A stretch of DNA of 64,000 nt from a virus. Shown in pieces: positions 1 to 40,007 of this stretch. Numbering within the stretch: the stretch's first letter is position 1; every line of letters begins with the position of its first letter. Made by a program: the position numbers and the translations under genes. The DNA lies in the IMG/VR virus record IMGVR_UViG_3300009849_000001, positions 1 through 64,000 of that record, one strand, 5' to 3'. Below the pieces are notes generated by a model. That model ran no database searches. It saw nothing but the letters and a program-made list of their open reading frames with translations, and was not told where the DNA came from.

Positions 1-3000
1 AAGATCATCAACAACATCTTCATCCTGACTTGTATCAACGTCTTCCGATATTGTTTGTTTTGCCCGTTCGGGTGTTAGCTTTTTCTTTGTTGCATTTTTA
101 AAAGCTTTCGCAAGTTCGGCAGATCTACCCCCACCTTTATCTACGGAACCAATACCGTTAGGATGCTTGTCAATAAATTCAACTATGTCATTTTCAGTAA
201 TCTCTGTATTGGCAATACCAGACAACTCTTGTGCAAGATCATCTATATTTCTACCTTTTTCGCTAAAGTAATTAGGGATTATCTGACGGTTTCCCTGTAG
301 ATTGTTTGCATCTACAAAAAGATCATAGCCTATTCTTTTAATTTTACTGAAATTTTCAGATATGATTTTCTCTATATGGCTAATGTTACCGGGCTTATCT
401 ACCTCCTCAAGATAAGCCGTAGCAATTTCTTTAGGATCCTTGCTTTCATTTATTATCTTATCTAATACCTGATCTTGGGTGTCCGGTATCTCATCAGGTT
501 TTTCAACCTTTTCAGGCTTCTTAACCTCCGGTATTTCCTCCGGCCCTTTAACTTTCTCTGCTTTCTCCTGTTGAAATATAGCTGACTGAACTGCCTTAAC
601 CTTTTTGGCAATATTTTCAGCAAATTCACTCTTTTGATTCTGTGACCAACCGGATTCGCTACCCATTACTCCATCATAATCCAAACCTTCCTTTTCTAAT
701 TCAGCCCGAGCAATTCTTTCCGATATCTTAGCAAGATCCTTATTCTTAAAACTGTTTTGGATATCGTTAATATCATTTGTTTTAAGTTTGTTCGTTTCGG
801 GATTAATATGCAGACTTCTTTTTAGCTCAGAAATAGCAACGTCACTAAGCCCATTGCGTTTAGCCACATCAGAAATATGTTCAGCAAAATTAACAATTGT
901 ATTATCTTCTAATTTATTTCTTTCAGATGTTAATGCTTCCAATTCAGCATACTTAGCAGGGAGTGGCTCTGTTAAAAGTTTGCGCATAGCTTGGTCTTCT
1001 GAAATATCAAATTCCACCATGTAATCTTTAATTACCACATCCTCAATCTCATCAATTCTATTCTGTAAGGATTGAATTTTTTTTCCCGAATAATCAGTTT
1101 CAATCTCTTTAGTATCCCTAATATCTGATGTTTTCTCCGCCCCCTTAACTTCTTCTACTTCTACCGGTCTTACAACTTCTTTTTTTACCTCTGGTTTGGT
1201 GACCGGTTTCACCTCTGGGTTTTTGGCTTTTTTTTCTGAGTGTTGTTTCTCAATTTCTTCAATGGAGAGGTTGGAAACATCTACGCCACTTGCTTTTAAT
1301 TCATCGGTTTTAGTTTGCAGTTCATCTACCTTTTTAAGGTCCTCAGCTTGCTTTTCACCCGTTGGAACTTCTGGCACCTGATCTTCTATATCTAAGACTG
1401 TGTTGTTAGCCTCTCTTTCTTGCATGATTTGGTCAAGCATATCCTCATGATTACGTTGCTTGCGCTCTTTAATCATATCCCCAATTTTCTTTGGTGCTGC
1501 AGCTGCAGTAAATCCGGCTCCTGAAACAGTGCCAATGGAAAATGCATCTACCACGTTTGAAAATGGATTAATATCAGGATTAACACCTGTTGCCATATCG
1601 GTGATGTTTCCTAAAAATTGATTTACCGCTTCCGACAAACCCTCTTGTACTGGTGCTGTGTAAATTCCTATTTTCTTGTAATATCTCTTTAAATTATTAA
1701 TGAAACCTTTCTTTATGGCCTCTTGTGCAACTTCTTTACCTGCTTTTTTGTATAGAGATTTAACCATACCACCTAATTGTGCTGTCCCTACGGTCTCTGT
1801 AATCACCTCAAATGATCCAGTAAGTATGGCGTTAGCAACCTTAACAGATTCGGCTACGTCATCCACTTTGTCTAATTCTGCTTTTTTTTCAGCACCTGCA
1901 GATAATCCAAGTGTTATTAATCCTGCACCACCTGTAAACGCTGCCGTTAAACTTGGTATTAAAGATTCACCTGCCCCAAGACCAGCTGCCCCAATAGCAT
2001 TAGAATATTGCCCTGTTTTAAGGTATGCTTCAATACTTTTATCATATCTTTCTGAAACGGTTCTTAAATTATCAGCATTCTTATCAAGAAAATCTGTAAT
2101 CTTATTGTCTGAAACAGTAGTTTTTAACTGTTCTGAAAGTCCTGAACCTGGTCTTATATCCTCTAATAGTTGCAGGGCCTCTTTTTTCTTATCCGCCTTA
2201 AGCTCACCTGAATCAATTGCCTTTGATACAAGATATTCTTTAAATGCGGTTTCAGGAAGTCTACTAATATCATCAATAAGAGCCGGAATTCTAAATAAGG
2301 AACGTCCAAATGATAAACCACCGGCACCAACCCTCTCCATGAAATCTCCAAAATAAGAGGTTTTATCTTTAGAGGTTATCATTGGAGGTAGATCCTGAAA
2401 ATTATTCTCCTCTTCAAGTATTTTATTAACCTCTTCATCAAATCTGTCAGGATCCCCAATTTTCATTTTAGCCAATGGAACACTGTATTCCGGATCATCT
2501 AATTTTGAGGAGGTAATCATTTTTGAAACATCCCTGCCGTCTCGCTTAAGAACTTTAACAGCTTCATTCTTAGTGATACCCATTTCGTCAGGGCTTACGC
2601 CAGTCATTTCAAAATACTCTGTTTTCCATTTTGTAGGATGATTAGGACTTTTCAGGTTTTTACCATCAAGTCCAAAGGAACCCCAATGAGGAACGTCATC
2701 ACCTTCTTCTTGCACTGGAACTTGTCCAGATTGCCATGCCCCCCTGTAATCGTAATTTGAATTATCCGTTTCTGGATACTCCCCAATTTTATCTTTAAAA
2801 GCTTCTTTCCACTCAATAACAGCAGGTTCTGTAGCCATGAAATCCTGATATTCCGCCTCTTCTTGATCTGCAAGTGCAGTAGGTGAGTAATCAGTATTTG
2901 GTTCGGTGGGATTAGTTACTTTTTCAATATCGCTTTCTAAATCAAATTCTTCAAGAACTTCATATTCTGCATTTGGATCAAGCCCCTCTTGATTTATATT

Positions 3001-5422: not shown

Positions 5423-8400
5423 TTAGATTGTAAAATTAATATCCACTTCATACAGATTGGTTTCTTCATCGTTACTTTCTTCAAGTAATATGCTCATAAC
5501 CTCTCCTCTTAATTGATCTCCATTCATGAGTAATATGGGTTTTTCAACATTGTTTTTTGTTATCATATTCCTCATAAACTCAGTGTATCCAACACCTTCT
5601 TTGTACTTAAATTTCCCCTGTTTTAACCTTGATAACATACCGCTTGGATATGTTGCCGTTGGGTCAATATTAATGTTTGGTGCTGACCAACCGTTTTTAT
5701 TTGTAAATATACTCATACTATAGAAAGTTTTCACCATAGTAGGATCAATATTTACATACACCCTAAAACGCCTTGGATATTTCACCCCGTAAAACTGACA
5801 TCTAGGTACATTAGCTGAATTTTCAACATATAACTCATTCCCTTTAGAGGTGTAAAACTGGTTGCCAAATCTACACATGAAATCAGGCATTAAAGATAGA
5901 TTACAAGCAAACCTATTTTGCTTTTCATGGAATGCAATAGTTTCATTATTGTCTGGATTTACATCATCAATAAATGTAATAACAACAATATCGTTTTCAT
6001 CATCATACCCAGTCAGTACTTTTATATTATCTAATCCAGATTTTAACAGAGCTTTAGCTTTATTATGGAAAAAACCTGCGTATTTGTAATCTGAAACAGG
6101 ATGCAATCCATTGGCTGAATCTCTAATCATCATCCCTGAATAAATATCAAAGAAATAAATATGTCTTTCATTTCTCAATACACTTTCAGGGTTTGAACAT
6201 CCATAATCTAATTTTGAAGGATCCGCAACCCCAAATGTCCTATCGATAGCTACAAGTTGATTTTCACCATTTGATAATTGGGTGAATGTTTTCCCTATAT
6301 ATACTGGAGTCACCTTTCTTGGTTGGTAAACCTTTAGGGTGTCTCCTATTTGGGTAATGCTGGTAATTTCTCCAAATCGATCATCCAAATTAATCTTGTC
6401 AGCATTCTTGAATCTATTCAGGTCATTTATATCAGTATTATCAAAATACTTGCCTGAATGCCTGATTAGATTATAGACTTTATTTTCTGAATCTCTGTTT
6501 TCAACACCAACCCTTCCGTGACTTGTCATTTTAGAATCAAAAAAATCAGAAGTGTTCATATCAATACATGGAAAATCAGTAAGAGAAGTTAAATTATATC
6601 TGCTTCTTCTTGTGAAATCACCCTCTGTTATGACTCCTATTGCAGGTTGTCCAGATATATCGTTCGGGTCTTGGTCTGTTGTTTGCCCTTGGTGGACTCT
6701 ATTTTCAGTGCCAGGATTAATAATATCATAACAATCCCCAACACCAAAATAAAAATCTTCTTCATTTTCTTTTACGGGGGTAATAATCTCAATAACATCA
6801 CCTGCTGCAAACAAACTCTGTATGTCGGTTATATCTTGAGGTATGGCTACAATTAACTTTTGTGAATTATCTTTATATATGGTTTTGCCGTTACTGTCGG
6901 TTAAATCTATTTCAACATCAACCCACTCACCATCTCCATCGCTATATTCGTAACGCTTAACTTTTTCAGGGTCGTCATATTCTAAACCAAGTATTTCATA
7001 CTGATTTTCATCAGTTCGCTGCCTCCATCTTTCTCCCTCAGGACTCGAATCAAGATACCTGCCTATTGCTTTTACATGATCTCCATCAGTGAATACATAT
7101 GGCTGTAATGATGATTTTGGGATCTGCTCTATGGTGCCTAGTATTGATCTGTTTATGCCTACAATTCCATACTTAATACCAGACCTAACGTCTTCAACTG
7201 CGTTGTCCACTGTCCATTGAAATGATCTTGATTGACTAAGATTTTTAGTGACATACATTTGGTATTTTGTAGCCCATAACGGAGGTTTGTGTTTTAATTC
7301 ATAACCGATATGAATAACGGGTGCTATCAATACGCCATGTTCATCCTCATCCAGATATATTTGGGTGTCATTACCTGTTTGTAATGATGACTTTCTCCCG
7401 TAATTATCGGCATATTCAATAGCTACCTTATATAAACCCGTCTTAAATGTTCTACGCTTTGGATCGGATGCAATACTGGTATCCAATACACCACCAGAAA
7501 CATTTACTATTCCATAAATAATATCCCCCCCATCATCATCAAGGGCATTATAATTCATGGAGTATGGGAATGCAATCTGGCTATTGTCTTTGGTATTATA
7601 GAAAATTTCCAGACCTGTGCTTTTTTCCATATGTAAATTTCCACCTTCATCAATATCATATGTGTATTCCGTATATTCCCCCCCGCTTTCAAATATTTTA
7701 CCCTGCATGCCTAAATCAATTAGTTTCTGTACTAATTGAGATTGTAATTCATTTTGTTGTTCTAAATCAGTACCCGTAATTGTACTCCAGTCATCGGGCC
7801 CTTGAATCGTGATATCTGTACCGTTTGGCAACTCTACATTAATCACATATATTTTATCTCTGTACTCTGCTATGCTTGGAAGATTTAAAACTAAAAACGC
7901 CCATTTATTCCGGTCGAATTGCTGTTCTTCTGTAATCTCTGTTTCGAATCTAACAAAAGCAGGATTGTAACTAATCTGTTCTCCGATTGCATTTAAAGCA
8001 ATGTCTGTTTTTATGTTATCAAAACCTTCCGTAACTCTACCATAAGCTAATTGATTTGATGGTAAATACTCTTGTGTTTCTGCAATTTGTGGAAATATAT
8101 TATTTGAGTCTAAAACATCCCCTTCATCCAAGGCGACAAATGTTCTGTTATTTAAGAATCGGTATTTAATCCTTGAGGAATCAGGGATCAAATCATCTGT
8201 CTTTTCAAGAATATCATAACTTTTCCAGACCCCAAGCTCTCCTGCTTTTACAGCAATCTCTATTTTATCAACCCTTTCACCACCGGTTTCTATCATAAAA
8301 TCAATGGCGTTGTTTATATTTTGATCTGCTGCTGTGAATCCTCCTATTAATTCCTCCTCACTGGTAGGTATTAAGCATTGGGAAAATGGGCTGAATAAGG

Positions 8401-14864: not shown

Positions 14865-16097
14865 TTAATTATAACCTTTCATTGCTGCATTCTCCTGATT
14901 TTGATTGTGTTTTTCATTGTCGCTTAAATCACCATTCCCTGATTCTTCAAAACGCTCTTTAGCTTTAGCAAAGCTTTGACCTGTTCTTTCTTCCCAAACT
15001 TTATCACGTGCCTCAACCCTTTTATCTGCAAGCGCATTAGCTATCTGCAGGTAATTTTTAGTTATAAAGTCTTGGTGCATGACTGCTTTCACATGACTAA
15101 TTGCTTCGGGCGTGTTAGGTAGTCCGTTTTCTTTTACATATTCCGCAATATTCTCTCTGTATTCGGCTCTTAGCTCATCAGAAATAGGAATGTTTGTAAC
15201 CGGTTCCTTACCACCTTTAGCATCTTCAATAGTCGCATAAACAGGAAAATCTTTAAAATCATTAACCACAGTAGGAACAGAACTGCCCCAATCTTGTTCG
15301 TTTTTGACTCTTACCGCCTCTGCTTCTTGGCTACTCTGTGCACGTTGAGCCTCAAAATCAGGTTTGGTTATTTTCCCTTGCAATTCAAGAAGTTTAGATT
15401 CAGCCACTTTACTAGCCTGTTCCACTTCAAATTTATTCAGTTGATAATCCTCTGAGTCCGGATCGCTAATGTCGTATTTTCGCTCTAATGACTCCCTCAA
15501 TAGAGATTCTTTACCTTTTAGCGATGGATCAGTGATTACTGAATGCAAAATCATTTTATCTATAGCATCCATAGTACTTATATCAGTACCATTCAATGCA
15601 GTATATTCTTTGATACCCAATTTGGTTTCAGTAATGAAGTTATGCAACTTAGCCATTTCTTCATTCTCTTCCAAAGGATTTTTAAACGAATTCTCTCTCT
15701 CTTTATAGCTACTAACCTGTTTTTCAAGGTCTGCGTTTGCAGTCAAAGCAGCTTTTATCTGATCAATATTTTTAAATGTTCCTTCTGATTTCTCATTGAA
15801 ATAACTTAAAAACTGATCATCCGTAACTGTTACGTCACCTGCCGGTGCAACATACCCTTCATCACCCGGTTTAAGTTCATCACCAGTTGGTGCAACATAT
15901 CCCTCGTCACCTGGCTTTAATTCGTCACCTGCCGGTGCAACATACCCTTCATCACCCGGTTTAAGTTCATCACCTACTGGCGCATACCCTTCATCACCCG
16001 GCATTAATGCGGCATTACCTTCCATGTCAACTAAACCATTTGAAGTCATTTGGAAAACACCTTCCTCTTCTACTGCTAAATTTCCTAATCCATTCAT
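14865..16097 (-). CDS. Putative scaffolding protein (410 aa, acidic, repeat-containing)
   Basis: Lies between the portal and capsid genes. Highly charged helical sequence. N-terminal GDELKPGDEGYVAPAGD repeated about 3.3 times. Confidence 0.5.
   Translation of the reverse strand: MNGLGNLAVEEEGVFQMTSNGLVDMEGNAALMPGDEGYAPVGDELKPGDEGYVAPAGDELKPGDEGYVAPTGDELKPGDEGYVAPAGDVTVTDDQFLSYFNEKSEGTFKNIDQIKAALTANADLEKQVSSYKERENSFKNPLEENEEMAKLHNFITETKLGIKEYTALNGTDISTMDAIDKMILHSVITDPSLKGKESLLRESLERKYDISDPDSEDYQLNKFEVEQASKVAESKLLELQGKITKPDFEAQRAQSSQEAEAVRVKNEQDWGSSVPTVVNDFKDFPVYATIEDAKGGKEPVTNIPISDELRAEYRENIAEYVKENGLPNTPEAISHVKAVMHQDFITKNYLQIANALADKRVEARDKVWEERTGQSFAKAKERFEESGNGDLSDNEKHNQNQENAAMKGYN
15836..16000 (-). 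repeat. 48-nt in-frame tandem repeat (about 3.3 copies) in the scaffold-like gene
   Basis: Copies 15836-15884 and 15932-15980 are identical at nucleotide level. The middle copy differs mostly at synonymous positions. Confidence 0.85.
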
Positions 16098-16117: not shown

Positions 16118-18478
16118 TTATATAGCTGTTTGTTTCTCCTTGTCAGACTCTTCATTCTCCACAAGTTTATATTCATGTAGAGCTTTGTCAGTCTTACGTT
16201 TTTCTTGCTGTTCTAAGATGATCAATTCTTTGGATCTCTCATGTGCTTCCACCGCCGCTTGTCTGGCTAATTCTGCCGCTGCCTGATCACTTTTCCTTTT
16301 TTCATCCCCCTGCATGGCAATGTTCGACTCTTGAATTTTCTGCTGTCTTTTCTTTTCCTTGTTCTCAAAGTATTGTAAAAGAGCAGAAACATGTTTCAAT
16401 GATTGCCCGGACTCTATCATTGTTAGCAACATTGTACCGGTAGATAGATTTATGGAGGATTGTCCTTCCCTGCCAACCTGCATAGATATCTTTATTTGTT
16501 CTTTGATATCCGCCTTCATCTCATCGGTGGCGGCAGGTCCTATTTTTATTCCCATTGAAGAGGCGGCAAGATTTGCCCCTACGCTTAGGGCCTTTAATTT
16601 AGCTTTACCAATAACAGGATAGTAGGCTTTGTAAACATCCGGATTTTGTTTTATTGCAAGTTGAATCCGGTATGTAAAATTGTCTGCAGTTCTGGATTTA
16701 AGGAACAAATAACCATCATACAGAGGTTTTAAAGTATTATTTGTTGCTACTAAAGCATATTCAGAACCTCTAACAGATTGTTTTGGATCTGGATTGGAAG
16801 CGTCAGCAGTTGCATTAACACCTGTATTGTTTTGGATCATTCCAACATTGATTTGTAATGTATCATTAAATTCACTCAAAGCATTACCTAGACCGCCCTG
16901 TAACTCCTCAATTGGTTTCCCTGAATTACCTCTATTCAAAGCACCACCCATTCCCATGGCTGTTAACTTATAAATCAAGTTACCTGTATCGGATTTTAAT
17001 CTTAGTATTTCAAGGGGGTGGAATGTTTCACCAGCCATTCCAGTAGAAATATTATTCAAAGCATCAAATTCAACTGCTACACCAGGAGGAGAAGCTAAAG
17101 CAATGGCATTTTGAAATTTAAGCCAAGCTATCTGTATATTATCAAGGTTTGGTCGTGTTCTTTCTAGAATAGACTGTCCAGACAATTTAAATACATGAAC
17201 ACATGATTTAACTTCATTGTCAGCTCTTACAGTATCGTAAACCCTGCCATAACTGAATACATGATCTGTATCAATTATCCATGAACATTTATACAAGTTT
17301 ATAACCCTTGTTTTCTTAACCTTCCTATCGGGTCTGTTTTGATATTTCTTATCATTATACATTTTTTTACCCGTGTCGTAAAACTCTTCTACTATTTTGG
17401 ATTGACCTTTTTTGTTTGGTTTAATCTGGTCGTAGAATTCATCTGTAGACTCCCATTCACATTCCAGTGTTGGTATAAGAAAATCGTCATAAGCATTTAA
17501 AGTGGAATCGCTATCCCTTTCAAACAGTTCAACATCATCCCACATGCTGTTTCCGTACTGACCAGCAAATTTTCTGGAAAAAGTTCTGATATCATCCTCA
17601 GAAAATCCATGTAGTTTCAAGTCAGCAGCCCTAAGCATTCTTACATACCCATGAAATTCAGGGTTTGAATACTCATCTTCACGAGTTTTTGGGACAATTA
17701 AATTTGCAGGATCAAGATACATAGCTTTAACCTTGTTTGTTCTAAGGTCAAAATATTCTTTAACTGCGGCAATATTAATTTCAATTAAATCTTGAAATAT
17801 TTTCCTCTTTATAGTGTCGCTCCAATTAGAAACATCAAAGCTATGTTTTATTAGGATTTCATGTACAATTTCAATCTTAAGCTTATTACCACCTAAAGAA
17901 TCAAAGAATTCCATTTCCTCTATCGATTCTGGCATAAATGAGGATTCAAATTGAGGCTCACTACCAAGGGCCTTGTAGAAATCTTCAATTTCTTCCCTAT
18001 GTTTTGACTCAAACCACCCTGTCCATTTAAGATTTTCCTTATCTGATCCTGATTTTGGATCACAGGCATTAGCTGTTATTTCATGTTCTATAGCAGAATA
18101 CTTACCAATTAACAAGGATAGATATTTTGGGAATATAGGTAGAATATCTTTTTTGACATTCATGTACCCATTACGCTTTGCGCTTTTCCCTACTTTTCCT
18201 GCTTCTGTGTCGGTTTGACTTATTGGACCTTGACTTATTGGACCACCTTGTGATAATTGTCTCAAATATTGGTCAGGATCTTGTCTACCTGCAGAAAACA
18301 ACCTGTTACTGGTAAATTTAGCAGCTTGTGAATATGGCGTTGTAGATGTTTTCATTCCGTATGATAGGATGTATCTAGCCCAATCCGCACACCATTTGGC
18401 ATCCTTATTTTTAGGATCGATATCACTATCAGGTCTCGGATTAAATCCTGTCTTGTACTGTGAAAAATTCAACGCCAT
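16118..18478 (-). CDS. Putative portal protein (786 aa)
   Basis: Large ORF directly downstream of the TerL-like gene and upstream of scaffold and capsid. Call based on position and size. Confidence 0.55.
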   Translation of the reverse strand: MALNFSQYKTGFNPRPDSDIDPKNKDAKWCADWARYILSYGMKTSTTPYSQAAKFTSNRLFSAGRQDPDQYLRQLSQGGPISQGPISQTDTEAGKVGKSAKRNGYMNVKKDILPIFPKYLSLLIGKYSAIEHEITANACDPKSGSDKENLKWTGWFESKHREEIEDFYKALGSEPQFESSFMPESIEEMEFFDSLGGNKLKIEIVHEILIKHSFDVSNWSDTIKRKIFQDLIEINIAAVKEYFDLRTNKVKAMYLDPANLIVPKTREDEYSNPEFHGYVRMLRAADLKLHGFSEDDIRTFSRKFAGQYGNSMWDDVELFERDSDSTLNAYDDFLIPTLECEWESTDEFYDQIKPNKKGQSKIVEEFYDTGKKMYNDKKYQNRPDRKVKKTRVINLYKCSWIIDTDHVFSYGRVYDTVRADNEVKSCVHVFKLSGQSILERTRPNLDNIQIAWLKFQNAIALASPPGVAVEFDALNNISTGMAGETFHPLEILRLKSDTGNLIYKLTAMGMGGALNRGNSGKPIEELQGGLGNALSEFNDTLQINVGMIQNNTGVNATADASNPDPKQSVRGSEYALVATNNTLKPLYDGYLFLKSRTADNFTYRIQLAIKQNPDVYKAYYPVIGKAKLKALSVGANLAASSMGIKIGPAATDEMKADIKEQIKISMQVGREGQSSINLSTGTMLLTMIESGQSLKHVSALLQYFENKEKKRQQKIQESNIAMQGDEKRKSDQAAAELARQAAVEAHERSKELIILEQQEKRKTDKALHEYKLVENEESDKEKQTAI

Positions 18479-29340: not shown

Positions 29341-30843
29341 TTAAAAAGGTGGTGTGTCATCATCTGTGGGTTTTAGAAAATCTTCATTATTATCAAAACC
29401 TTCTAATATCCTAGATTCTGGAGAAAGCATTCTATCCATATGTCCGGCCACCTTACCTTTATCCGTTGCCTCGTAGTCATAGTCGTCAACATCGAACATT
29501 TCTGTCATTGAACCATTGTGACGTAAAGTAACATCCCCCGGACTACCATCTCTAAATTTGGCAATTATAAGCTGAACAATATTTACAAGACTATTACCCT
29601 CTGAATCCTCTGTTATTCCATACATATCGGGTCTATGGATAAACACCACCATATCTGCATCTTGCTCTATTGCTCCTGACTCTCGAAGATCAGATAAAAT
29701 AGGTCTCTTAGCATCACCAGTTCTTTGTTCAAGCCCCCTATTTAATTGAGCCAATAATATGAATGGAATATCCAATTCCTTAGCAAGTAACTTCAATCCC
29801 CTTGCTAAAATAGCAACCTCCCTCTCTCTACTTCCTCCCTCTTCCGCATCGATTAACTGTAAGTAATCAATTGCAACCATGCCTAATTTACCCTCTGATT
29901 TACGAAGAAGACATTTTGATCTTATTTTAGAAAGGGTAACTTCTGTATCATCATCGATCCTTAGTTTAGTGTTGTTACCAAGTACTCCAATACTATTTGT
30001 AACAACTGTTAACTCATGGTCCTCTAATGTTCCTGTTTTGAATCTCCATGCATTAACGCCTGAATGGGCTACTATCATACGATCCCCAAGCCTTTCACTA
30101 ACCATTTCCAAAGAAAATATATCTACATATTTACCTGCATTGGTTGCCGCCATAGCCATTTTTATTAATAAAGCAGTTTTACCACCTCCTGGTCTTGCTG
30201 CAATTACAATTAAATCACTATTACGCCATCCATCAGTGGCTTTATCTAAACCTTTTGATCCGGTTGGAATTCCTGTTATTTCACCAGAACGCCCCTTTTC
30301 CATCCGTGCAGTAAGCTCTTTAGCACACGAATCCATTATATTGGAAATGTCTCTTACTTTTTGTTCTCCTCCATAGATCATTTTTGATGACTCAAGTAAA
30401 TGATCCTGCATAATCTTCATGTACTCATCGATAGTAATCCCTGCAAAAGATTCCTTTTGAAGATTATTAGCGAAATTTATACCGTGCCGAAGAATAAATC
30501 TTGCTTTAATCTCATTGCACATGAGGGTTACGGATTGACCGGATGATCCTCTATTTGTTAATTGAGCAACATAAAAAGGCCCGCCAACATCAGCAATGTT
30601 TTTATTGTCGGTCAAATACTGAGTTAAGACTAAAATATCAATCTTAACACCCTTTTTAGTTAGATCTAACAACGCTTTCCATATTATCCGGTGCGCATCT
30701 TTGTAGAAAAAATCAGGGTTATCCAGTATCTGCATGCAAGACAATATAGCCTTTTCATACAGCAGACAATTACCTATTACCGCCTCTTCATATTCTAATA
30801 CCTGTGGGGGAATGTGCCCGTAATCTAAGTTTATATCTGTCAT
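29341..30843 (-). CDS. dnaB: Replicative DNA helicase, DnaB family
   Basis: N-terminal PPQVLEYEEAVIGNCLL, Walker A AARPGGGKTA, IDYLQLI, LLAQLNR, LSDLRESGAIEQDADMV: a full DnaB motif set. Confidence 0.9.
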   Translation of the reverse strand: MTDINLDYGHIPPQVLEYEEAVIGNCLLYEKAILSCMQILDNPDFFYKDAHRIIWKALLDLTKKGVKIDILVLTQYLTDNKNIADVGGPFYVAQLTNRGSSGQSVTLMCNEIKARFILRHGINFANNLQKESFAGITIDEYMKIMQDHLLESSKMIYGGEQKVRDISNIMDSCAKELTARMEKGRSGEITGIPTGSKGLDKATDGWRNSDLIVIAARPGGGKTALLIKMAMAATNAGKYVDIFSLEMVSERLGDRMIVAHSGVNAWRFKTGTLEDHELTVVTNSIGVLGNNTKLRIDDDTEVTLSKIRSKCLLRKSEGKLGMVAIDYLQLIDAEEGGSREREVAILARGLKLLAKELDIPFILLAQLNRGLEQRTGDAKRPILSDLRESGAIEQDADMVVFIHRPDMYGITEDSEGNSLVNIVQLIIAKFRDGSPGDVTLRHNGSMTEMFDVDDYDYEATDKGKVAGHMDRMLSPESRILEGFDNNEDFLKPTDDDTPPF

Positions 30844-31557
30844 TTATCTTCTGCTTTCACCATCAATACGGATGACATTAAACATTTGTACCATTCTATC
30901 TGCAACAGCTTTTCCATAAATTTTTGAATATGTTTTATCTATACTGTAATTTCCAGTAGCAAACGTTAGTTTGCCATTTTCATAACGAAAAGTTAAAGCT
31001 TGTGATAATGGTTTTTTTTTGGTTCCAAAATCATTTGCGGATTCTTCTTCCTTACCTAAATCATCAATGTAAAGAATTGACGAAAGTAATTTATTTAACC
31101 ACTCTCTTTCTGCCGTGGTTTTTAAACTTAAAGACCTATTAAATAAATTATGCGCTGTTATTTGTTTAATCCGATTCTGATTATCCGGTTGGAGAATTGG
31201 AGAATTACTGTATTTATGAACATAGTAATTCCATAAATCAATGAATGATTTCATTAATACGGTTTTCCCCGGTCCGATTTTACCAATAAGTAGGATGCCT
31301 TTGTTTAAATCTCCATCCTGATTTTCAAAATCTCCTTTGAATTTATCACTCCCAACGAAATAATAATATAATTGGTTTATTATATAACGGTTGTTATTTA
31401 CAGGGATTTCAGTTCTTGGATCAAGTTCAAATACAGACATTGGTTTATCCTTTCTTACCCATTTGTTTGCAAAATGAATAAAAACATCACCGAATTCTTT
31501 GGATGGTAATCCAGGAAAATATGGTCTGTTTAATATTTGAATTTTATCAGTGCTCAT
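30844..31557 (-). CDS. DnaC/IstB-like AAA+ helicase loader
   Basis: Walker A GKIGPGKT and Walker B LYIDDLG. Abuts the dnaB start. Confidence 0.6.
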   Translation of the reverse strand: MSTDKIQILNRPYFPGLPSKEFGDVFIHFANKWVRKDKPMSVFELDPRTEIPVNNNRYIINQLYYYFVGSDKFKGDFENQDGDLNKGILLIGKIGPGKTVLMKSFIDLWNYYVHKYSNSPILQPDNQNRIKQITAHNLFNRSLSLKTTAEREWLNKLLSSILYIDDLGKEEESANDFGTKKKPLSQALTFRYENGKLTFATGNYSIDKTYSKIYGKAVADRMVQMFNVIRIDGESRR

Positions 31558-31566
31558 TTATTTATT

Positions 31567-32133
31567 TTAAAAATCACTATCTTCTTTTTCATCTGGTGAT
31601 TGCGTTTTACCTACATGACCTGATATTTCTTCTTCCCATCTAAAAATGTATGTAAGGCTTTGATTTTGGCCTTTTGATCTCAATTTCAAAAGAGAATTAA
31701 ATTGCTTACTCCAAAACCAGTCTGTTCTAGCCCATTTTACGATATTGAAAATTTCCTCATATGAAAATTTATCTATAGAACGGCATTTCTCTATAGTATC
31801 AATCCATTTCACTTTGTCTGCATCCGTCAATGATGCCTTTGCTTTTGGTCGCATTGTATTAGTGAACCAATTACAGATTTTTCTTACCTCCTCGTTGGTC
31901 TTGGATTTATCTAAATTTATTTTTTTACCTTTTCTTGCTTTAAGTCCACCTAATACTCCAGTGGTCTTTTCACAATAGATAAGATCTGCCCCATTAATCA
32001 GGACTATGGTTAAATCTCCATCATTAGCCATTTTGGTAACTACACTAGGAAATATATCGTTACCCCTGGCATACTCTGACCTTGTGAAACAATATTTAGG
32101 ATCCACAGGCCCATTTTTAATTTTTTTGCTCAT
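31567..32133 (-). CDS. Hypothetical protein, possible replication initiator/organizer
   Basis: First gene of the loader-helicase operon, directly downstream of a 610-nt repeat-bearing noncoding region. Positional inference only. Confidence 0.6.
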   Translation of the reverse strand: MSKKIKNGPVDPKYCFTRSEYARGNDIFPSVVTKMANDGDLTIVLINGADLIYCEKTTGVLGGLKARKGKKINLDKSKTNEEVRKICNWFTNTMRPKAKASLTDADKVKWIDTIEKCRSIDKFSYEEIFNIVKWARTDWFWSKQFNSLLKLRSKGQNQSLTYIFRWEEEISGHVGKTQSPDEKEDSDF

Positions 32134-32542
32134 TTTAAAATGTTTTAAATGTTATTTAAATAGTTTAACTAATTTAAGATAAAAAAAGGCGAATTACGCC
32201 AATAAATTAACAACATGTAAGCTGCGATTAATAACAAATAATAATCTTCTTTTGGTTACGTATTGTTTTACTGCTTAGAATTGAAGTTTCAGGAGTGATT
32301 GGTCTGATAAAATAAGTTATAACAAACCCCTTACCCCGAAAAAAGATTTGTTATAATTATCCTACCAAAACTGCTTGTCATCTCGCTCTCTCGTTTCATG
32401 GCTCAATTAGGAAAATAAGTTCAAATCCTTCAATTGATTTAACTGGAAAAATTTATGCAACATTCGTTACATGTTTCTTTTTCTCAGATTCTAATGATTT
32501 TTTTCGGGTGCTTTTCATTTAACACACATAGATTAAATGAGA

Positions 32543-32592
32543 AGAACCTGATAACAGGCCACTTGCGTGGATACAGATTGCTATCAGGTTCT
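32543..32592. repeat. 11-bp perfect inverted repeat (AGAACCTGATA / TATCAGGTTCT) enclosing a CCACttgcGTGG hairpin
   Basis: Seen directly. Lies in the noncoding gap 32134-32744, next to the serine recombinase stop. Confidence 0.8.
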
Positions 32593-32656
32593 ATAAACTC
32601 ATAAGAGTTTTAATATTTTTAATCTTTAGATCTGTATCTCTAATCTTTCAATACGA

Positions 32657-32664
32657 CAAATATA
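32657..32664 (-). promoter_or_regulatory. Putative -7 promoter box (TATATTTG)
   Basis: TAnnTTTG match about 520 nt upstream of ATG 32133. Confidence 0.4.
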
Positions 32665-32744
32665 GAAATAATCTTTTTAATTTTCACAATGTTTTTTTAA
32701 AAAAAACCACATTTGCCGAAACCTTTTTTTGAAAATATTGATAT

Positions 32745-33563
32745 TCAGTCAATAAGAACCTTGTAATTTGGATTGTTTTTATACCGATCAGCTATTGATT
32801 TTACAGTTGATGCATAATACTTGCTTCCAGAAGAAGTGCGGTACCCCCCATCATTTAAAGTATTAGCGATAAAGCGCAGGGATTTTTTTTGATTCTTCAT
32901 TAGATTGATCACCACGAAAGCTTTTTTATTATTAGGATCATCCAATGATTTTTTAACTAAGGATCTTGTACCGGCCTTTCTTCCGGAGTCAGTTAGGTAT
33001 TTTTTGTTCCCCCACGTCAAATTTTCAATTTCACTCAGGATCCTTTTTATATCTTTTTTATTTTCAGCCGAAATACACTGATTTTTATTTAACACGTCTA
33101 GTTGTTTTTGTAATGCCGAAATCTTAACCGATCTACGGGCTATTGATTGCTGAATAGCAGCTTTTGTAGATGTTTGAATGTTGTTTACTTCTTGCTCTGC
33201 TATTGCGGCCATGATCTGAAGTACAGTCTTATTGGCATCTGGTTGGTCACAAAAGACAACATTTTGTGGTGAGTCTAAAATTAGCGATAGGAAATGAAAG
33301 TTACGACTTAACCTATTTAGCCTAGAGACGATTAGGGTAGAGTTATTATGTTTACACAATTCTAAAGCTTTACATAATTCAGGCATTCTCCTCTTATTTG
33401 TTCCTGTCTCAACCTCTATAAATATTCTGATTAGCAACCCATTACGGTTTTTTATGAATTCTTCAATTTTTTGTTGCTGATCAGCCAATCCAAGCCCTGT
33501 TTGGCCCTGTCTCGGAGCAGACACCCGAATATAGGCCACGTAGTTAATAATTTTGTTCTTCAT
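32745..33563 (-). CDS. Serine recombinase (resolvase/invertase family, 272 aa)
   Basis: YIRVSAPRQ catalytic-serine motif, LIVSRLNRLSRN, and a C-terminal HTH-like SLRFIANTLNDGGYRTSSGSKYYASTV. The linker is longer than in typical 185-aa resolvases. Confidence 0.85.
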   Translation of the reverse strand: MKNKIINYVAYIRVSAPRQGQTGLGLADQQQKIEEFIKNRNGLLIRIFIEVETGTNKRRMPELCKALELCKHNNSTLIVSRLNRLSRNFHFLSLILDSPQNVVFCDQPDANKTVLQIMAAIAEQEVNNIQTSTKAAIQQSIARRSVKISALQKQLDVLNKNQCISAENKKDIKRILSEIENLTWGNKKYLTDSGRKAGTRSLVKKSLDDPNNKKAFVVINLMKNQKKSLRFIANTLNDGGYRTSSGSKYYASTVKSIADRYKNNPNYKVLID

Positions 33564-34767
33564 GCTTTTTGTATTTTACTTGTTACTAATTGTTTACGAA
33601 GCGAAAAGTTTAAAAGTGGTTAAATGAAACGCCATAAAACACCACTTTCTAAAGGAAAACGCATAATACACCAACCTTGTAATTATAGACTGACACGGGC
33701 AAAAAACCTCATAATATACCCATGTAAAATCAATCCTCTACACCTCTCATGTACAAAGGTAGGAAACCTATATTTAAAAAACAAGCTTTTTTTAATGAAG
33801 TTAATACTATTGAAACGCCATAAATTAACAATAAGTAGGTCTTATGGTTCAACTCAGCGAAATAGAACAAAGTGCTGAACTATGTAATTTTACTATAAGA
33901 ACGTTAAATTTACCCCTATTTTTTGTCGCGTTATTTTTAGGGAGTCATAAAATGCAACAGTACAAACATGTACGGATACGGGCAATTTGGAAAACAGCCT
34001 AATCAACAATAAAAAAAGGTGTTAAATATGCTTAATTTCCAAGTTATGTTTATGGCTATTGAAATATACTGATTACTTTGCCCCTCTGAACATCCTATTT
34101 TTTGCAGGGAATGTAGACACTTAAGCACTTAATGATAAGGATAGTACCCACGTTTACGCTAGGAAAATTGAAAAGTGCTAACCGGTGTGGGTCTTTAAAC
34201 ACCTGTATTTACATAAATTAGCCCTAATACCTTAAAAGCTTATTTTCCTGCCTGTTAAAGGCGTTGATAGCGTTAGCGTTACGGGTAATGTACATAGACT
34301 GGTATCTTCGTTTCAAAACATGTACACTATGCTAAAGTAAAGTGTATCAGCGCGTTGTATGTATGGAAAGCGTTAGACCTATGCCTATTCACATGTAGGT
34401 CCATGAGCGGAAACGCCTGCACGTGTAGCGTTTTAAACGCGACTGCCAATCTGTCAAAACAAAATAAGGAATCTATTTAACATTTTTGGGCGGTGGAAAC
34501 GCCTGCTTAACAATTTAGTGCTGTTTCAGGGGCTTTCATTATGTATTCGATTATGGCTATTTAACATCTATTTGATATTAACGTATCTACATTAGCGTAT
34601 AATGTCGCAAAAACGGTCATTTTGGCCTATTTTTCGCATTCACGGATAATATTAATGAATCTGTCTTGTATACCTCTTGTTTGTTGGTGTTGCGGTTGAT
34701 TTGTTGAAAACATTAAAAAGCATTAATTTTGACCTATTAAGTATCGTTTAGCGAAAATAAGTAAGTT
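33564..34767. other. 1.2-kb ORF-free repeat-rich spacer between divergent recombinase genes (candidate attP / recombination substrate / ncRNA locus)
   Basis: No credible ORF. Direct-repeat pairs: TGAAACGCCATAAA (33625, 33811), TTATGGCTATT (34050, 34551), AAACATGTAC (33964, 34316), GGAAACGCCTGC (34409, 34495). Many GCGTT/AACGC cores and small palindromes. Confidence 0.5.
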
Positions 34768-39296: not shown

Positions 39297-39511
39297 TTTT
39301 ATATATTTAAAAGTTACTTGTTGTAATCTGACACAAATTAAATGTATATTTTTCTAAAAAACAAATTGTTTTTCAAAAAAAATGAAAAAAAACATTCAAT
39401 ACACTGAATTTGCACGGGTTGAAGGATCCTTTTTAAAAGGAGTATATAATTACATTACTTACTACATATGCATTATCTTCGTAGGGCTTACGATTACTTT
39501 TAACAAAACAT

Positions 39512-39615
39512 CCCTTATAAAGGACCTTCTAAAGGACCTCCCAAAGGATCCCTTCTAAAGGACCTTCTAAAGGACCTCCCAAAGGATCCCTTCTAAAGAA
39601 CCTCCCAAATGATCC
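39512..39615. repeat. Iteron/operator-like tandem array: 38-nt period x about 2.7, built from 12-14-nt near-palindromic units (CCTTCTAAAGGA / CCTCCCAAAGGAT)
   Basis: cccttataaaggaccttctaaaggacctcccaaaggat / cccttctaaaggaccttctaaaggacctcccaaaggat / cccttctaaagaacctcccaaatgat. The 38-nt period is not a multiple of 3 and TAA occurs in the units. Confidence 0.85.
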
Positions 39616-39861
39616 AGGCAGGAACATGATTTTACATCAGACCAAACCATGAGGGGCGGCAAAAAATCTGATTATATTTACCCATCCCCCTGAGTTACCC
39701 ATATCACATTCTTACCGTAGGCATATACATTTTAAATTAGTAAAACCTTATCGTTTAAACATTTTTACCCAAAAAGCGTTTTGGATTTTAGGTGTTTTGG
39801 ATTCTGATTGAAATTTAAAAGCTATTTTCTACAGAAATAAATAGCATAGAAATAGCATAGA

Positions 39862-39894
39862 AAAACCCGATTCAATGGCAATGAACCGGGTTTT
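39862..39894. terminator. Intrinsic terminator hairpin
   Basis: aaaacccgattca-atggca-tgaaccgggtttt with one mismatch. Ends the upstream early operon. Confidence 0.6.
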
Positions 39895-40007
39895 AATAAT
39901 AATAACCTTAAATATTCTGAACAGATTTGTTTGTTCATTGATACACCTTACTGTGTGTATTTCTCAATAGACTTCTATTTATGGACCTCTTATCATATCT
40001 TTAGTAT

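Follow-up and report, generated by a model that had tools for sequence, protein, structure and literature searches.

Here, we describe a gene-free spacer of 1204 bp (positions 33564-34767) in 64,000 nucleotides (nt) of phage DNA, positions 1 to 64,000 of the IMG/VR virus record IMGVR_UViG_3300009849_000001 (hereafter the window). The spacer is enriched in short motifs and separates the divergent genes of a serine recombinase and a small tyrosine recombinase. The same gene layout is present in a second phage lineage, whose spacers share oriented motifs with that of the window and whose non-coding DNA close to the recombinase gene is under purifying selection. We tentatively propose that the flanking proteins use the spacer as a cis-acting promoter/operator region and recombination locus. 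The assignment of proteins to motifs, recombination at the spacer and its purpose are what we infer from sequence comparison and from analogy with known systems.

The spacer and its flanking recombinases

An earlier note on this DNA, made from its letters alone, had singled out the spacer for holding no more than one implausible open reading frame (ORF) of 84 codons and for lying between divergent serine and tyrosine recombinase genes. Both descriptions hold. The 84-codon ORF (33624-33878) is basic and of low complexity, all other ORFs have at most 52 codons, and the region is bordered as follows.

33564-34767, no strand: ORF-free spacer of 1204 bp, the putative cis-acting region studied
32745-33563, minus strand: serine recombinase of 272 amino acids (aa), with a catalytic domain carrying the YIRVS motif, a long helix E and a C-terminal helical domain
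32781-32957, minus strand: C-terminal 'Recombinase'-type DNA-binding segment of the serine recombinase (residues 203-261), 44% identical to a protein of the related contig L002
34768-35514, plus strand: small Xer-like tyrosine recombinase of 248 aa, catalytic domain only (PF00589)

The serine recombinase retains the YIRVS active-site motif, matches PF00239 (E=5e-19) and, weakly, PF07508 in Pfam, and has a 'DNA invertase' as its PHROG match. Its AlphaFold model comprises an alpha/beta domain, a helix (residues 112-160), a disordered linker and a small C-terminal helical domain (helices 210-262). The tyrosine recombinase, one of the few plus-strand genes of the window, matches PF00589 alone in Pfam (residues 52-206). 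In its AlphaFold model, residues 1-31 are disordered and one helix lies ahead of the catalytic fold. Its residues R68, H161, R164, H191 and Y200 are invariant in the alignment; XerA, XerD and XerC are the best, albeit weak, NCBIfam matches, and XerA (5hxy) ranks best in structural comparison. With catalytic residues and the YIRVS motif kept, both recombinases look functional.

Ten six-frame segments of the spacer gave no match in Pfam and three weak ones in PHROGs (E=0.03-0.29, none significant), and tblastx against the spacers of relatives returned nothing below E=0.18. A decayed protein-coding gene, a possibility raised in the earlier note, is not supported: no frameshifted homologue or other remnant was found in PHROG, Pfam or tblastx comparisons. 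The central richness in C+G and CpG that the note had seen by eye is real and, for GC content, modest: 39.9% in 34100-34520 as compared to 34.8% window-wide. The CpG observed/expected ratio is 1.15 versus 0.68 for the window and tops that of all other 1.2-kb windows. The four pairs of direct repeats and the palindrome listed in the note are all present and are given here together with the motif sites and promoter-like sites of the spacer.

33625 and 33811: exact repeat pair TGAAACGCCATAAA (14 nt)
34050 and 34551: exact repeat pair TTATGGCTATT
33964 and 34316: exact repeat pair AAACATGTAC
34409 and 34495: exact repeat pair GGAAACGCCTGC
34428-34440: palindrome GCGTTTTAAACGC
34259-34279: GCGTT run ggcgttgatagcgttagcgtt
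34259-34503, no strand: dense AACGC/GCGTT cluster with 9 of 13 copies, including the palindrome GCGTTTTAAACGC
34269, 34275, 34369 and 34427: AGCGTT sites inside the cluster
34410 and 34496: GAAACGCC copies inside the cluster
33626-33643, plus strand: two RAAACRCC sites, GAAACGCC at 33626 and AAAACACC at 33636
33812-33819, plus strand: RAAACRCC site GAAACGCC, within the repeat TGAAACGCCATAAA
34020-34028, minus strand: TATTTAACA-type site, read as TGTTAAATA on the plus strand
34474-34482, plus strand: TATTTAACA site within CTATTTAACAT
34558-34566, plus strand: TATTTAACA site within CTATTTAACAT
33754-33784, minus strand: Bacteroidota-type promoter-like site TTG-N-TACCTTTG, facing the serine recombinase and replication genes (consensus match only)
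34701-34731, plus strand: Bacteroidota-type promoter-like site TTG-N-TAATTTTG, 37 nt ahead of the tyrosine recombinase start codon (consensus match only)

Repeated 10-mers number 15 in the spacer versus 2.5 +/- 2.1 in 1000 dinucleotide shuffles, and repeated 12-mers 4 versus 0.18. About 5% of equal-sized real windows of the genome also reach 15 repeated 10-mers; by itself, the repeat count is unusual without being unique. The strongest enrichment signal of the spacer is the pentamer AACGC/GCGTT, which the earlier note had described as many GCGTT/AACGC cores. It occurs 13 times, with 1.5-1.7 copies expected, and the spacer is its densest 1.2 kb in the window. All four copies of GAAACGCC in the 64-kb window fall within the spacer. 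The wider motif RAAACRCC, which was defined post hoc after data inspection, has five copies, all on the plus strand, versus 0.27 expected (Poisson P ~1e-5). TATTTAAC has three copies in the spacer (~0.17 expected) and nine in the window; motifs of this type are present in the spacer once inverted (34020) and twice direct (34474, 34558). The hairpins that the note had seen and the inverted repeats of the spacer are at chance level as compared to shuffled sequence.

The promoter-like site at 33754-33784 is one of 12 such matches on the minus strand of the 64 kb, and that at 34701-34731 one of six on the plus strand. They provide outward-facing promoter candidates at both spacer ends, about 915 bp apart, with the motif arrays between them. 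A scan for sigma-70-type promoters and terminators stayed at background level. In L009 (Tenacibaculum phage Larrie, Cbastvirus), an 11-bp sequence, TTTTAACAAAA, is found as perfect tandem pairs at many intergenic sites (e.g., 3315, 3943, 5805, 6532). It resembles the spacer motif ATTTAACA and may be a phage-specific promoter or regulatory motif.

Conserved layout and shared motifs in related phages

Among 50,697 GenBank phage records, none had DNA similarity to the window, and exact-protein look-ups of both recombinases returned no record. The tyrosine recombinase has two close relatives among 5.8 billion proteins, P0006 (50% identity) and P0007 (52%), encoded on contigs L002-L005 and L006-L007, respectively. 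A homologue search with the serine recombinase found nothing close, a protein search with its 78-aa C-terminal domain found nothing, and scans of viral contigs with protein or spacer-DNA patterns gave chance matches only. The metagenome scan was dominated by a distant 182-aa family through the pattern THTLRKTF.

The recombinase gene of L002, L003 and L005, too, stands alone on the plus strand and follows an ORF-free stretch, which here measures 1.64 kb. On the far side of the L002 spacer, a gene at 8063-8365 (minus strand) encodes a stand-alone protein of 100 aa that is homologous to residues 203-261 of the serine recombinase of the window (44% identity, E=8e-11). Both segments match the start of the PF07508 'Recombinase' family (positions 10-50) at about the family threshold. 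This C-terminal DNA-binding domain is the sole part of the serine recombinase that is conserved across both lineages; a decayed catalytic domain was looked for within the L002 spacer and left no trace. The DnaD-like initiator of L002, left of the spacer, is 33% identical to its counterpart in the window, and in both phages a large methyltransferase gene lies right of the recombinase after three small genes. The two lineages thus have in common an order of replication genes, serine-recombinase-type DNA-binding protein, long spacer, small tyrosine recombinase and methyltransferase. Distant members of the recombinase family (~182 aa) have about 200 nt upstream, which identifies the long spacer as a trait of this clade and not of the whole recombinase family. 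In cultured phages, these distant members are encoded within the genome, among early genes or ahead of packaging genes.

Except for one marginal block and the short motifs, comparison of the spacers by BLASTN, shared k-mers, nhmmer and near-match counts gave background signals.

34100-34187, plus strand: weakly similar block (GAATnnAGACA...ACTTAATG...TGCTAACCnGTG), marginal match to L002 9087-9175

The local alignment score of this block with L002 is 51, versus 36.1 +/- 4.5 in shuffles (shuffle maximum 51), and the similarity is weaker to L003 (z=1.0). An unbiased screen looked for hexamers that are enriched in the spacers of both the window and L003 and in the same orientation with respect to the recombinase gene. 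AGCGTT ranked top (4 versus 0.25 expected in the window, 4 versus 0.27 in L003; combined P 2e-8), a result that was reached by none of 100 shuffles, with the best opposite-strand hexamer four orders of magnitude weaker. CATGTA was the second-ranked shared same-strand hexamer. The L002 spacer has three AGCGTT copies versus 0.21 expected. As AGCGTT is enriched in the spacers of both, the 'GCGTT cores' of the earlier note are conserved in both lineages. Spacers of both lineages are also enriched in TATTTAAC. Furthermore, RAAACRCC may be taken as a single motif family that covers both GAAACGCC of the window and AAAACACC of L002 and L003; L002 has four copies of it, all on the minus strand, versus 0.34 expected.

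The proximal non-coding DNA of the relatives is better conserved than silent positions of the adjoining gene. Synonymous sites are saturated between L002-type and L006-type recombinase genes (43% identity at fourfold-degenerate sites), whereas the 300 nt upstream of the recombinase are 70-80% identical, in blocks, between L002 and L006, which indicates purifying selection on this non-coding DNA. The longest invariant block between the two types, AATGTTAAATA-TTTTACT-TATTTAACACA (L003 5997), lies about 200 bp ahead of the gene. Two inverted 11-bp arms flank its 7-bp centre, as in simple tyrosine recombinase sites, and the arms are the TATTTAAC motif. A second palindrome of the relatives, TACTTTAACTA-TTGTTAT-TAGTTAAAGTA (L003 5574), is perfect (11/11) and lies 420 bp further upstream. 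The best match of the window to the upstream profile of the relatives, at 34447-34487, is marginal (E=0.29) and overlaps the TATTTAACA site at 34474.

Both palindromes are conserved within or beside a mosaic segment of L002 and L003. The central 500 bp of these spacers (L002 9166-9666, L003 5365-5880) differ by 15-18%, with about 90 nt replaced, between flanking genes that are 100% identical. We read this difference as ordinary phage mosaicism. Targeted hypervariation was considered and rejected, as the identity of 82-85% equals the synonymous level of the neighbouring methyltransferase gene.

Proposed recombination and control at the spacer

It is tempting to regard the spacer as the cis-acting centre of a conserved three-part module that heads the replication genes. 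The left partner is a protein with a serine-recombinase-type DNA-binding domain, which in this phage is still joined to a resolvase catalytic domain, and the right partner is the small Xer-like tyrosine recombinase, predicted to have no N-terminal DNA-binding domains. The spacer might contain the divergent promoters of both flanking genes, and its short oriented motif arrays (AGCGTT/AACGC, RAAACRCC, TATTTAAC) could be binding sites for the flanking proteins. Its likeliest use would be that of a site-specific recombination locus, with a crossover site and accessory sequences, like cre-loxP, xerS-difSL, res and cer/psi. Briefly, the small tyrosine recombinase might act at the spacer, with the left-hand protein as accessory factor and autoregulator. 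By analogy, the purpose could be resolution of replication dimers or concatemers, or cyclisation of incoming DNA.

Parallels to these systems are incomplete. As in P1 cre-loxP and xerS-difSL, a single tyrosine recombinase gene has non-coding DNA directly upstream, the relatives L003 and L006 carry an 11-7-11 palindrome about 200 bp ahead of the gene, and the recombinase is Xer-like by weak profile and structural matches. In contrast to Cre and Xer proteins, it lacks the N-terminal core-binding domain, and the non-coding region, at 1.2-1.6 kb and with additional motif arrays, differs from those of cre-loxP and of streptococcal xerS-difSL (PMC2731167), where a simple target site lies just upstream of the recombinase gene. 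The spacer resembles Tn3/gamma-delta res and cer/psi in lying between divergent genes beside the gene of a resolvase-type serine recombinase, and in its multiple short motifs in both orientations, e.g., AAACGC-N11-GCGTTT-T-AAACGC at 34411-34440. An autoregulatory role, as with res-type regions, is plausible by this analogy. However, res has three dyad subsites within ~120 bp beside the gene, whereas the densest cluster here is 700-900 bp away from the serine recombinase gene. A dyad of AACGC half-sites is present at 34411-34440, and direct triplets occur at 34259-34281; all of them are over 690 bp away from that gene, and no three-subsite pattern is definable. Unlike in res systems, the catalytic domain is lost in the relatives, and cer/psi differs from the proposed module in using host accessory proteins.

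Among the alternatives of the earlier note, a DNA substrate of the adjacent recombinases fits the region best. Several findings weigh against our proposal. A tight lox/dif-like palindrome is missing: no candidate in the window reaches 10/11 matching arm positions, and three candidates at 9/11 compare with 1.9 expected. The inverted repeats of the spacer are at chance (best score 11.5 versus 11.6 +/- 1.3 in shuffles). The spacers of the window and its relatives are unalignable overall, and the comparison comprises only two independent lineages. RAAACRCC is given less weight because of its post hoc definition and its opposite strand in the two lineages. The central 7-mers of the two palindromes of the relatives differ, and these palindromes would therefore not recombine with each other. 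Finally, a promoter/operator region without recombination would explain most of the same facts.

We regard such purely transcriptional control, with divergent promoters and operator arrays that time the replication operon and the tyrosine recombinase, and with the left protein only as repressor or activator, as the main rival, unlikely if by no means far-fetched. It agrees with the outward Bacteroidota-type promoter matches at both ends, with the repeated short motifs and with the position of the spacer at the boundary of early genes and replication module in both lineages; the relatives, having kept the DNA-binding domain and lost the catalytic one, favour binding or regulation as the conserved role. 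However, 1.2-1.6 kb, including about 915 bp between the promoter candidates, is far beyond the usual need of a promoter/operator in a compact phage genome. Moreover, the conserved 11-7-11 palindromes of the relatives are of the type on which tyrosine recombinases act, and the tyrosine recombinase is catalytically intact. Some lactococcal phage origins are repeat-rich non-coding regions near replication genes. The spacer, too, is non-coding, contains repeated short motifs and lies near the replication module, and could be an origin at which AACGC/RAAACRCC sites bind an initiator beside easily melted DNA, upstream of the DnaD-like, DnaC-like and DnaB genes. We nevertheless consider this improbable. 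The motifs are irregularly spaced, with no tandem or phased iterons in the spacer, cumulative skews track gene orientation only and give no replication-related GC-skew signal, and a 611-bp gap (32134-32744) is nearer to the initiator gene. More typical iteron arrays elsewhere in both lineages (window 39510-39615, L003 ~2518-2982) likewise weaken this alternative, which the earlier note had put forward.

FimB and FimE are small tyrosine recombinases without N-terminal domains that act on adjacent invertible elements. In analogy to fimS, one of the recombinases might flip the GC-richer segment ~34029-34473 between opposed TATTTAAC sites: a small recombinase gene adjoins a non-coding element a few hundred bp long, this segment is bracketed by TGTTAAATA at 34020 and the inversely oriented TATTTAACA at 34474 and 34558, and the serine recombinase matches a 'DNA invertase' PHROG. 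Such a switch is very unlikely, as the inverted repeats do not surpass those of shuffled sequence, the segments adjoining the candidate half-sites differ, the Bacteroidota-type scan found no promoter consensus inside the segment, and all four related contigs show one orientation. We give equally little credence to the idea that the spacer encodes non-coding RNA, be it one long or several short transcripts, that cooperates with a recombinase or regulates phage genes. In favour are the length, non-coding nature and conserved position of the region, three plus-strand copies of a promoter-like element, CCTATTTTTTG, and the recent precedent of RNA-guided recombinases (PMC13604230); a literature search on RNA-guided tyrosine recombinases yielded nothing relevant. 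The structured RNA suggested in the earlier note found no support in Rfam scans, folding or covariation. Rfam returned nothing for either the window or the relatives, whether at gathering score or at E up to 10. Shuffled sequences fold as well as the central 551 nt (z +0.68 and -1.34 for the two strands), no 120-nt window on either strand has a z below -2.1, the alignment of the relatives lacks covariation support (covariation term +0.24), and an upstream region of this kind is absent from the wider recombinase family.

As in a lambda-type attP, dispersed direct repeats surround a central region in non-coding DNA next to an integrase-family gene, and the phage genome continues on either side, as the unintegrated form predicts. 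The earlier note had suggested an attP with arm-type integrase sites as repeats, with the reservations that 1.2 kb is large for an attP and that the integrase lacks the arm-binding domain. These reservations were correct, and we deem an attP for chromosomal integration, with the repeats as arm-type or accessory sites, extremely unlikely. By Pfam and AlphaFold, the tyrosine recombinase lacks an arm-binding domain as well as a canonical core-binding domain, the region is five times larger than a lambda-type attP, and the window contains no tRNA or tRNA fragment. A subfamily-specific recombinase pattern gave chance matches only in 185,579 species genomes, with no prophage copy, and related small recombinases are encoded mid-genome in phages alongside separate integrases. 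The motifs ATTTAAC/GTTAAAT fit the integron attC/attI consensus RYYYAAC/GTTRRRY, but integron-integrase features and cassette structure were absent and an integron site was set aside. There was also no mimic of a host dif site. The Bacteroidetes dif consensus has 28 bp in an 11-6-11 arrangement (TATAA-N6-TTATGTWAAAT). With a weight matrix built from seven predicted Bacteroidetes dif sites (PMC3025954), the highest scores were 9.7 in the window and 6.0 in the relatives, as compared to at least 26.6 for real sites.

Returning to the recombination and control region that we favour, a more specific version would be a split system, in which both N-terminal DNA-binding domains of the tyrosine recombinase have been lost and the stand-alone serine-recombinase-type DNA-binding domain delivers or organises this catalytic-domain-only enzyme on the spacer arrays. 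We consider this joint version quite improbable. If true, arm-type sites would be recognised in trans by a protein of another recombinase superfamily.

Small tyrosine recombinases consisting of the catalytic domain only are widespread in phages (>100 clusters; 87 GenBank phage records). A recombinase beside its own site and control region is a known theme. In the literature searched, three aspects appear undescribed, namely how long the region is, that a tyrosine recombinase reduced to its catalytic domain is paired with a stand-alone DNA-binding domain derived from a serine recombinase, and that oriented motif arrays are common to two otherwise unalignable spacers. With a conserved partner protein, a defined cis region with shared oriented motifs and candidate crossover palindromes in relatives, the locus is a testable system. 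If binding and recombination prove true, one clade of small recombinases would be explained and a compact recombinase/site pair might be gained; if not, the spacer would matter only locally, as a phage control region of unusual length.

Genome context and further observations

The window belongs to a ~76.7-kb phage contig with 35% GC, and its genes lie almost exclusively on the minus strand. Read as transcribed, they begin with numerous small early genes and methyltransferases, which are followed by the replication module and then by lysis, terminase, portal and structural genes. The replication module contains the following genes.

31567-32133: DnaD/O-like gene
30844-31557: DnaC-like gene
29341-30843: DnaB

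For the terminase and a DUF4942 methyltransferase, the closest matches are proteins of Flavobacteriia phages (Cellulophaga, Tenacibaculum, Leeuwenhoekiella, Riemerella), which makes a Bacteroidota host plausible. PADLOC defence models had no match.

Genes are less tightly tiled outside the spacer than the earlier note had stated, as an ORF-based screen found further stretches of 611 bp, 711 bp and ~1 kb without long ORFs. The 611-bp gap (32134-32744) lies between the serine recombinase and DnaD-like initiator genes, has a raised CpG observed/expected ratio (1.02), and contains the palindrome TTTTTTTAAAAAAA and a hairpin with a 14-bp stem (32543-32556 with 32579-32592, 93% complementary). The 711-bp gap (39297-40007) harbours an array of about nine head-to-tail AAAGGAYCY units at 12-14 bp spacing (39510-39615), with a 38-bp super-period (96% match) and related GGATCC-containing copies at 39422 and 40030. 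As its period is not divisible by three, the array is non-coding; it looks like an iteron array and is a candidate origin or partition site. Its likely counterpart in L003 (~2518-2982) consists of about ten GATGAGGC copies in degenerate, iteron-like direct repeats, and lies in a 1.2-kb ORF-free gap between the replication genes and the recombinase module (L003 1803-3001; L002 5628-6949). The third stretch of the window (630-1699, ~1070 bp) has no ORF of more than 78 codons and is located upstream of a plus-strand gene (1700-2356).

L002 encodes a second small tyrosine recombinase of 187 aa (16153-16716), also as a lone plus-strand gene. Non-coding DNA of about 500 nt precedes it, and a strong terminator-like hairpin downstream is followed by about 800 nt without ORFs (16750-17525), which had no Rfam match. 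Among the structural genes of the window, the gene of a 410-aa protein (14865-16097, minus strand) contains a 45-nt tandem repeat with 3.8 copies and 79% match (15835-16001), which corresponds to a 15-residue repeat in the protein.

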